Assembly: GCF_044647545.1 (NCBI RefSeq)
Contig: NZ_CP172818.1
Reading direction: 5' to 3' (one strand)
Origin: Escherichia coli
Lineage (GTDB): Bacteria > Pseudomonadota > Gammaproteobacteria > Enterobacterales > Enterobacteriaceae
DNA length: 64,000 bases
Position 1 is the stretch's first letter, and each line of letters opens with the position of its first letter. Below are positions 19,395 through 20,833 of the stretch, piece after piece. A program made the translations under genes and the position numbers. The notes under the pieces are model-generated. The model saw only the letters and a program-made list of their open reading frames with translations, did no database searches and was not told the DNA's origin.

Positions 19395-20833
19395 ATGAGC
19401 GCCATAGATTCCCAACTTCCCTCATCTTCAGGGCAAGACCGCCCAACTGATGAGGTTGACCGCATATTATCACCAGGAAAGCTGATCATACTCGGTCTGC
19501 AACACGTCCTTGTCATGTACGCAGGTGCAGTCGCTGTTCCTCTTATGATTGGCGACAGGCTTGGCCTCTCCAAAGAAGCTATTGCGATGCTCATTAGCTC
19601 GGATCTCTTTTGCTGCGGGATCGTCACATTATTGCAATGTATCGGTATCGGCCGCTTTATGGGGATCCGCCTGCCGGTGATTATGTCGGTGACCTTCGCC
19701 GCTGTAACACCAATGATAGCCATTGGGATGAACCCGGATATCGGCCTGCTGGGGATATTTGGTGCCACTATCGCCGCGGGTTTTATCACCACATTATTAG
19801 CGCCACTTATCGGTCGCTTGATGCCTTTATTCCCGCCACTGGTTACCGGTGTGGTGATTACTTCTATCGGACTTAGCATCATTCAGGTGGGTATTGACTG
19901 GGCCGCAGGAGGTAAAGGGAATCCGCAATATGGTAATCCCGTTTATTTAGGTATCTCCTTTGCTGTCTTAATTTTTATCTTGCTCATTACTCGCTATGCG
20001 AAAGGATTTATGTCCAACGTCGCCGTATTACTGGGGATTGTATTTGGCTTTTTACTTTCGTGGATGATGAATGAAGTCAATTTATCCGGGCTACATGATG
20101 CCTCGTGGTTTGCGATTGTCACGCCGATGTCATTTGGTATGCCGATTTTCGATCCCGTTTCCATTCTGACCATGACTGCCGTGTTAATCATCGTGTTTAT
20201 CGAGTCGATGGGGATGTTCCTGGCACTGGGTGAAATAGTCGGTCGTAAACTCTCTTCACACGATATTATTCGCGGGCTGCGTGTCGATGGCGTAGGGACA
20301 ATGATAGGCGGAACGTTTAACAGCTTCCCCCACACGTCATTTTCACAAAACGTTGGCCTGGTTAGCGTGACGCGCGTTCATAGCCGCTGGGTGTGTATTT
20401 CTTCGGGAATTATATTAATCCTGTTTGGCATGGTGCCAAAAATGGCGGTGCTGGTCGCCTCCATTCCGCAATTTGTGCTGGGCTGGTGATGTTCGGCATG
20501 GTACTGGCGACAGGGATTCGAATTCTGTCGCGCTGTAACTACACCACCAACCGTTACAACCTCTATATTGTGGCGATCAGTCTCGGCGTTGGCATGACTC
20601 CGACGCTCTCTCACGATTTCTTTTCTAAGTTACCGGCCGTACTGCAACCGTTGCTGCATAGCGGCATTATGCTCGCAACCCTTAGCGCCGTTGTGCTGAA
20701 CGTCTTCTTTAATGGCTATCAGCATCATGCTGATCTGGTGAAGGAATCCGTCTCTGATAAAGATTTAAAAGTCAGGACAGTACGTATGTGGCTTCTGATG
20801 CGCAAGCTGAAGAAAAATGAGCATGGAGAATAA
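19395..20833 (+). pseudogene. uacT: uric acid transporter UacT (NCS2), reading frame broken near 20471-20490
   Basis: N-terminal 363 codons in one frame (ORF ending 20489), C-terminal part in another frame (ORF 20393-20833); total span is 10 nt shorter than needed for the 482-aa protein; start ATG preceded by RBS AAAGGAG. Confidence 0.8.

Follow-up and report, generated by a model that had tools for sequence, protein, structure and literature searches.

The closest described relative of the gene considered here is UacT (YgfU) of Escherichia coli K-12, a urate:proton symporter of the NCS2/NAT family. YgfU/UacT is reported to be the proton-gradient-dependent urate importer of E. coli (Papakostas and Frillingos, 2012, as cited in PMC3809563 and PMC9067508), and a ΔygfU control strain leaves more urate in the medium than does the wild type. 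Its gene adjoins those for reductive anaerobic urate degradation (XdhD-YgfM, YgfK, SsnA and others) as well as ygfT, which has been implicated in formate-dependent urate use (PMC12507026). Here we describe the uacT gene in a stretch of 64,000 nucleotides (nt) from the E. coli contig NZ_CP172818.1 (assembly GCF_044647545.1), the whole of which is hereafter called the window. This copy of the gene lacks 10 base pairs (bp) that are present in K-12, and its reading frame is broken.

Structures of the family members UraA and UapA (PDB 3QE7, 5XLS, 8OMZ, 5I6C) exhibit a core-and-gate elevator fold of 14 transmembrane segments (TMs), to which residues 31-414 of UacT align with E-values of about 1e-30. 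In UraA, the dimer interface is made up of TM5, TM12 and TM13 and transport depends on dimerisation, and residues Tyr342, Ile345 and Arg351, all of which lie within the segment IPLPVMGGVSLLLYGVIGASGIRVL, are assigned to TM12 of the gate domain (PMC5539350).

At the level of DNA, the lesion in the window resembles known slipped-strand deletions between short tandem direct repeats, in that the length of the deletion equals that of the repeat unit, one unit is kept and the event recurs. At the level of the genome, it resembles the lineage-specific pseudogenes of pandemic E. coli clones and the gene decay of Shigella, in that a near-core transporter gene carries a small insertion or deletion (indel) and is inherited clonally. 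The best explanation that we can offer for the whole, with a probability of roughly 0.93, is that this uacT is an inherited pseudogene made by slippage, that urate import has been lost with it, and that the allele has spread clonally and has arisen a second time elsewhere in the species.

Disruption of the uacT reading frame

The lesion and the parts of the gene that it separates are located in the window as follows.

19395-20833, + strand: the entire uacT (ygfU) pseudogene, of 1439 rather than 1449 nt, with a single 10-nt gap relative to K-12 and the intact alleles
19381-19386, + strand: Shine-Dalgarno sequence AAGGAG, 8 nt 5′ of the uacT ATG (19395), read directly from the sequence
19395-20489, + strand: N-terminal frame of uacT, consisting of 363 native codons, a Trp codon and the premature TGA; TM1 to mid-TM12, NAT signature included
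20475-20484, + strand: deletion junction, the one remaining GTGCTGGGCT unit of a tandem repeat that was ancestrally GTGCTGGGCG-GTGCTGGGCT, defined by a repeat scan and by alignment to intact alleles in K-12, AMA1167, 1428, CLSC36, MS1718, WB61 and strain 104
20477-20833, + strand: C-terminal remainder of UacT, untranslated and in the −1 frame (A365 to E482 and the stop), with what remains of TM12, then TM13, TM14 and the tail
20487-20489, + strand: premature TGA made by the frameshift

A first-pass annotation, made from the sequence alone, had proposed that uacT is interrupted at this place, ending as ...IPQFVLGW-stop in one frame and continuing in another. The two frames are indeed arranged in this manner. 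The ATG frame closes after 364 codons with TGG TGA at 20484-20489, and the −1 frame, which is open from 20384, reads AGLVMFGMVLATGIRIL... from 20477 onward and proceeds to the final stop at 20831-20833. The distance from the ATG to this final stop, which the same annotation had given as 1439 nt where 1449 are needed, is exactly 10 nt shorter than in K-12 and in every intact allele, which have 1449 nt. The proposed alignment to the K-12 gene, when carried out, yields 98.3% identity outside one 10-nt gap, so the reference does not share the sequence of the window at this position but carries 10 bp more. The missing nucleotides belong to gene nt 1081-1100. Compared with K-12 UacT, the reading frame is lost in TM12, which leaves 119 C-terminal residues in the wrong frame.

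The assignment of the gene as uacT, also made in the first-pass annotation, rests on agreement among the synteny (ygfT-uacT-yqfG-idi, as in K-12), the naming in RefSeq and matches to NCS2 profiles. The two fragments match consecutive parts of the 407-position profile TIGR03173 (the N-terminal fragment positions 1-328, the C-terminal fragment 334-407, with 329-333 missing), and thus the two frames align to one UacT protein. The N-terminal fragment also matches positions 6-343 of the 415 in TIGR00801. An intact UacT from the same lineage, which is the same protein accession as that of K-12 (WP_001295374.1), exceeds the cut-off of each profile, with 454 bits against 291.8 for TIGR00801 and 509.8 bits against 414.15 for TIGR03173; the N-terminal fragment of the window scores 375.3 bits on the former and, at 410.8 bits, falls just under the cut-off of the latter.

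Members of the NAT family carry in TM10 a signature motif of the form [Q/E/P]-N-x-G-x-x-x-x-T-[R/K/G], and the N-terminal frame has QNVGLVSVTR at residues 318-327. The paralog xanQ (12379-13779), which had been cited as an intact comparison within the window, is intact and carries the quoted motif IPSAVLGGAMTLMFSMIAIAGIRII at residue 363. The gene no longer encodes all 14 TMs without interruption, and the gate domain (TM5-7 and TM12-14) is incomplete. This uacT is a real and inherited pseudogene of the NCS2/NAT family, recognizable by its sequence, its motif and its synteny. It is a pseudogene rather than a functional member because of the premature TGA and because its C-terminal part lies in another frame.

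The deletion allele in public genomes

We searched 5426 complete E. coli genomes by megablast with a 45-bp query spanning the junction (20457-20501), in which no 28-mer is able to match the intact allele, so that the search seeds only on the deletion junction. This query matches 43 of the genomes, all at 100% identity, and the complete uacT of the window is 100% identical over its full length to that of 41 complete genomes. In the six carrier records that were inspected (MS6198, GPEC1258, IMT16316, DFL.5, EC19 and NRZ94505), the gene is either labelled 'urate/proton symporter UacT, frameshifted' by the Prokaryotic Genome Annotation Pipeline (PGAP) or lies just beyond the fetched range. An ATG at 20489 overlaps the premature TGA (TGATG) and opens a 114-amino-acid (aa) open reading frame (ORF) that gene callers annotate. 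By exact look-up in a collection of 15 billion proteins, this product and the 364-aa N-terminal product are each found on at least 1000 contigs from NCBI, ENA, JGI and Logan.

Short tandem repeats are classic sites of assembly error, and the window does carry a few private 1-2-bp indels and, at 46481-48557, a stretch rich in indels relative to all relatives. It might therefore be supposed that the 10 bp are present in the organism and were lost in sequencing or assembly. We give this supposition next to no credence. The 43 complete genomes with the identical junction were sequenced independently and derive from many laboratories, hosts and countries; its exact ORF products recur on the public contigs counted above; the deletion co-segregates with two flanking single-nucleotide polymorphisms (SNPs), which are described below; and the loss of 10 bp is atypical of homopolymer-type error. 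On these counts of complete genomes and contigs, we rejected the artefact. The deletion allele is real and is common in public assemblies.

The frameshift as such is already recorded in RefSeq annotations, and both the type of lesion and the gene decay that it represents are ordinary. Within the literature collection that was searched, no paper links sequence type (ST) 648, the lineage to which the allele mostly belongs, with uacT or ygfU.

Loss of one unit of a tandem repeat

The first-pass annotation had reconstructed, from the junction alone, a near-perfect tandem repeat of which one copy had been lost by a slippage-type deletion. The repeat and the loss of one copy are borne out by the alleles of other strains. 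A multiple alignment, together with the junction strings of all fetched loci, indicates that intact alleles read TTT-GTGCTGGGCG-G(T/C)GC(T/G)GG(G/T)CT- at this place. The uacT genes of 1428, CLSC36, MS1718 and WB61, which apart from the deletion are identical to that of the window, read GTGCTGGGCG GTGCTGGGCT, and the same pair is present in AMA1167 and in strain 104, while the window retains a single GTGCTGGGCT. The lineage's own intact alleles thus carry the predicted repeat, a 10-bp tandem duplication (GTGCTGGGC(G/T), twice) with 9/10 identity at gene nt 1081-1100, which codes for V361-L362-G363-G364-A365-G366-L367. Strains 1428 and CLSC36, separated from the window by only 2-3 SNPs in about 31 kb, both carry the intact GTGCTGGGCGGTGCTGGGCT.

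The K-12 version of the repeat is weaker, at 7/10 (GTGCTGGGCG GCGCTGGTCT), and the earlier reconstruction thus fits the true ancestor of this lineage better than K-12 would. When intact uacT was scanned for near-tandem repeats (units of 4-15 bp), the 10-bp duplication was the only one whose unit was at least 7 bp long. The exact placement of the 10-bp loss within the repeat cannot be fixed.

These observations are consistent with a simple course of events. An ancestor in ST648 (phylogroup F) carried the GTGCTGGGCG-GTGCTGGGCT duplication, and the loss of one unit shifted the frame by −1. Slipped-strand mispairing during replication is most likely the mechanism of this loss, because the two units are adjacent and nearly identical, because exactly one unit is gone, and because the same deletion has recurred independently on a second haplotype.

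Unlike contingency loci built from many copies of a simple sequence, this site has gone from two copies to one in what is essentially a one-way change. We considered whether uacT might be a phase-variable locus of this kind and rejected the idea, since intact alleles have two copies, the window has one, and nothing is left to re-expand. All 14 of the fetched loci that retain the repeat stretch have 1 or 2 copies, and among the matches listed in the search with the junction region, the intact ones all span 211 bp. The deletion is effectively irreversible because only one unit remains.

A different deletion was encountered in the uacT of strain 2022H048 (locus L005, 474-1844). It is an independent, in-frame loss of 78 bp at gene nt 1028-1105 (approximately window 20422-20489), flanked by the direct repeats TGTT(T/C)GGCATGGT, that removes 26 residues including the same TM12 segment. 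The 456-aa product is annotated in RefSeq as a normal UacT. Two different repeat-mediated deletions within this stretch of uacT are therefore present in the population.

Probable clonal spread in the ST648 lineage and a second origin

The carrier MS6198, isolated from urine, belongs to phylogroup F, ST648 and serotype O1:H6 (PMC8281228). Literature look-ups yielded no explicit ST for the carriers IMT16316 and Ecol_881. When the 15 kb upstream of uacT are used to define the lineage, 57 genomes are at least 99% identical to the window, 42 with the deletion and 15 intact. In 50 of these the upstream region is identical at about 100%, and here 42 are deleted and 8 are intact (1428, 201609, AH50, LR-62-2, CLSC36, CM196105, M25631H and Z226-7). 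A further 7, at 99.7% identity, are all intact and include a strain named 'ST648'. In an alignment of six sequences (4 carriers and 2 intact), SNPs at window 4807 (T vs C, in ygfK) and 31704 (A vs G, in bglA) follow the deletion without exception. This distribution fits a single origin of the deletion within the ST648 lineage, after which the allele would have spread clonally with what is now the dominant sub-clade.

The 43rd carrier, GPEC1258 (chicken, USA), has an identical junction on a haplotype that is about 2% diverged. Relative to the window, its mismatches number 565 over 28.5 kb, and its uacT has 20 SNPs. The closest of these to the junction are at gene nt 1027, 54 bp upstream, and at nt 1154, about 70 bp downstream. 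Apart from the deletion, its uacT is identical to many intact alleles, and over 31.4 kb it differs from the intact strain 104, which carries the same 9/10 repeat, by 3 SNPs and this single 10-bp gap. We read the deletion in GPEC1258 as a second event that probably arose independently, because SNPs of its own lineage flank the junction and because it is nearly identical to intact strain 104.

Since E. coli does recombine and the two junction sequences are identical, the deletion in GPEC1258 could instead have been imported by homologous recombination from an ST648 donor. The same SNPs make this improbable. Those of its own lineage that are kept on either side would confine the imported tract to less than about 127 bp, and the remainder of the 31.4 kb matches strain 104 at all but 3 positions.

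Independent origin therefore remains the reading that we prefer, and it allows a rough view of how often the repeat fails. About 2070 genomes share the exact 211-bp ancestral stretch (they fall in the 95-99% identity band, in which 95.3% corresponds to zero mismatches plus the gap). With two visible events among these, the repeat can be called a modest mutational hotspot.

Several points nevertheless weigh against the explanation as a whole. First, the single origin in ST648 is drawn from the haplotype over 31 kb and from two SNPs linked to the deletion in an alignment of six sequences rather than from a whole-genome phylogeny. Second, multilocus sequence typing is confirmed from the literature for MS6198 only, and the other carriers are placed in the lineage by the near-identity of this region. 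Third, the event in GPEC1258 could in principle be a recombination patch of less than about 127 bp. Fourth, slippage is deduced from the anatomy of the repeat and from recurrence. Finally, urate might enter the cell by another route.

The distribution of the allele has some practical uses. As a molecular marker, the 45-bp junction cleanly identifies the dominant sub-clade of multidrug-resistant ST648, and the SNPs at 4807 and 31704 are possible additional markers. ST648 carriers and their intact lineage-mates (MS6198 versus 1428 or CLSC36) provide a natural near-isogenic pair with which the role of UacT in reductive urate degradation by gut E. coli could be addressed. The locus also illustrates how a 10-bp repeat of two copies can be a hotspot of recurrent deletion. 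The marker for the sub-clade and the independent second event are small additions rather than discoveries.

Predicted loss of urate import

Residues 357-381 of UacT (IPQFVLGGAGLVMFGMVLATGIRIL) align to IPLPVMGGVSLLLYGVIGASGIRVL of UraA and to IPNSVMGGMKTFLFASVVISG of UapA, and the deleted segment corresponds to the conserved ...V(M/L)GG... at the start of TM12 in these proteins. The product of the window gene retains the core domain, the NAT signature and the first helices of the gate domain. It ends inside TM12 and is without the rest of this helix, TM13, TM14 and the equivalents of the TM12 residues with which UraA contacts its substrate. Unlike UraA, it cannot form a TM12/TM13 dimer interface. 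From the structures and from the literature on YgfU, the loss of UacT-mediated, proton-coupled urate import is very likely, because the product ends inside TM12 and lacks TM13 and TM14.

The layout of the two frames offers ways in which function might nonetheless persist. Ribosomes could pass from one frame to the other by programmed −1 frameshifting, or the 364-aa N-terminal part and a 114-aa C-terminal part, the latter re-initiated at TGATG, could assemble as a split transporter. Some split permeases, such as the halves of LacY, can complement each other. Here, the TGA overlaps an in-frame ATG of the downstream frame in a manner that could support termination-reinitiation, and both ORFs are annotated by gene callers.

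The details of the overlap make either route very improbable. The zone of frame overlap (20384-20489) contains no X-XXY-YYZ slippery heptamer, its only homopolymer being an AAAAA at 20438, and no Shine-Dalgarno match precedes the ATG at 20489. Moreover, both routes would yield a protein lacking 3-5 residues (G364-V368) in the middle of TM12, the helix that in UraA contacts substrate and contributes to the dimer interface. A split transporter would additionally have its cut inside a helix rather than in a loop, and PGAP treats the gene as a pseudogene. Programmed −1 frameshifting in particular was rejected, given the lack of a slippery heptamer in the overlap zone. We accordingly retain the view that the gene is a pseudogene, the uptake function of which has very likely been lost, as the first-pass annotation had proposed.

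Neutral or adaptive loss

A gene that is otherwise near-universal (uacT is matched in 5357 of the 5426 genomes) is deleted in 42 of the 57 genomes of this lineage, and the deletion arose at least twice. Such a pattern might be expected if the loss of UacT were itself advantageous. In one version of this idea, the loss is a convergent change selected in an extraintestinal pathogen that lives in urate-rich host fluids, such as those of the urinary niche; in another, it is the first step in shedding the anaerobic urate-degradation pathway. Urine is rich in urate, and MS6198 was isolated from it. Two carriers also have insertion sequence (IS) elements in the same gene cluster, an IS3 in xdhD and an IS1 upstream of uacT.

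We consider adaptive loss unlikely for several reasons. First, recurrence is expected from the 9/10 tandem repeat alone, and only two events are visible among the approximately 2070 genomes with the identical repeat-bearing 211-bp stretch. Second, no other gene of the cluster that was examined is disrupted in the window or in three of the six inspected carrier records. Third, there is overlap between the isolation sources (human, dog, poultry and environment) of the carriers and those of their intact lineage-mates. Fourth, clonal hitch-hiking with resistance plasmids explains the frequency of the allele equally well. We therefore infer neutrality or hitch-hiking rather than selection. Unlike wholesale erosion of a pathway, this is an isolated lesion: in the window, as in most inspected carrier records, the pathway is otherwise intact.

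The avian links of ST648 and of GPEC1258 also raised the idea that the loss might be associated with birds or other uricotelic hosts. This idea is unsupported, since most carriers are of human origin and the intact lineage-mates include poultry isolates.

Truncated forms of the protein are also found outside the strains discussed so far. Records from Shigella flexneri and S. sonnei in the UacT protein cluster include many such forms (294, 210, 150, 122 and 87 aa, and others), and one source names the 114-aa C-terminal fragment sequence 'transporter [Shigella sonnei]'. These records suggest that uacT has been inactivated repeatedly in Shigella too.

Genomic neighbourhood

The genes surrounding uacT that are relevant to urate and purine metabolism, and the small gene immediately downstream, are located as follows.

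4088-18959, both strands: urate/purine genes ygfK, ssnA, ygfM, xdhD, xanQ, guaD and ghxQ (+ strand) and ygfS and ygfT (− strand); all ORFs open, from the frame check of the window and the annotation of MS6198
20835-20960, + strand: yqfG, an intact small ORF of 41 aa that starts 1 nt past the uacT stop

Judged by these open frames, the urate/purine catabolic enzymes and the xanthine, guanine and hypoxanthine permeases remain intact in the window, and uacT is the only annotated pseudogene in this 50-kb region of MS6198. A polar effect on yqfG, which now lies behind approximately 345 nt of untranslated uacT mRNA, is possible.

The two IS elements mentioned above occur in ST648 carriers of the deletion. 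In EC19 (locus L014, 4298-5526), an IS3-family element splits xdhD, and in NRZ94505 (locus L015, 14919-15616), an IS1A is present in the ygfT-uacT intergenic region. These insertions could represent secondary decay of the urate pathway or coincidence. Further downstream, 2.4 kb from uacT, lies prfB (23201-24299, − strand), the well-known programmed +1 frameshift of which is genuine and is to be kept apart from the uacT lesion.

Other variation in the window

Comparison with related genomes revealed additional differences. At the junction 46480/46481, the window is without about 1.35 kb (most of a LysR regulator gene and part of a gene for a flavin mononucleotide (FMN)-dependent azoreductase) that is present in every best-matching genome. 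The adjoining stretch noted earlier, 46481-48557, contains about 12 small indel positions over 2 kb that span genes for DUF1471 and ferric-reductase-like proteins and an IS1. The best match to this stretch in the collection reaches 99.4%, with none at 100%, and the stretch may reflect either private decay or locally poorer sequence quality.

Two smaller indels both lie outside annotated genes. One is a 1-bp deletion private to the window, between ygfZ and trhA, where a C is missing at 30358 relative to all five aligned lineage relatives; the other is a 2-bp deletion (AA) at 605 relative to MS6198, the sole relative compared there.

Finally, in the bglA-gcvP intergenic region (about 33008-33010), the window is without a repetitive extragenic palindromic (REP)-like element of about 99 bp (...TGCCTGATGCGC...CATCAGGCC...) that is present in MS6198, IMT16316, DFL.5, EC19, 1428 and CLSC36. 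An extra gene annotated as 'transporter' occupies the same spot in MS1718, and the bglA-gcvP site is therefore variable.

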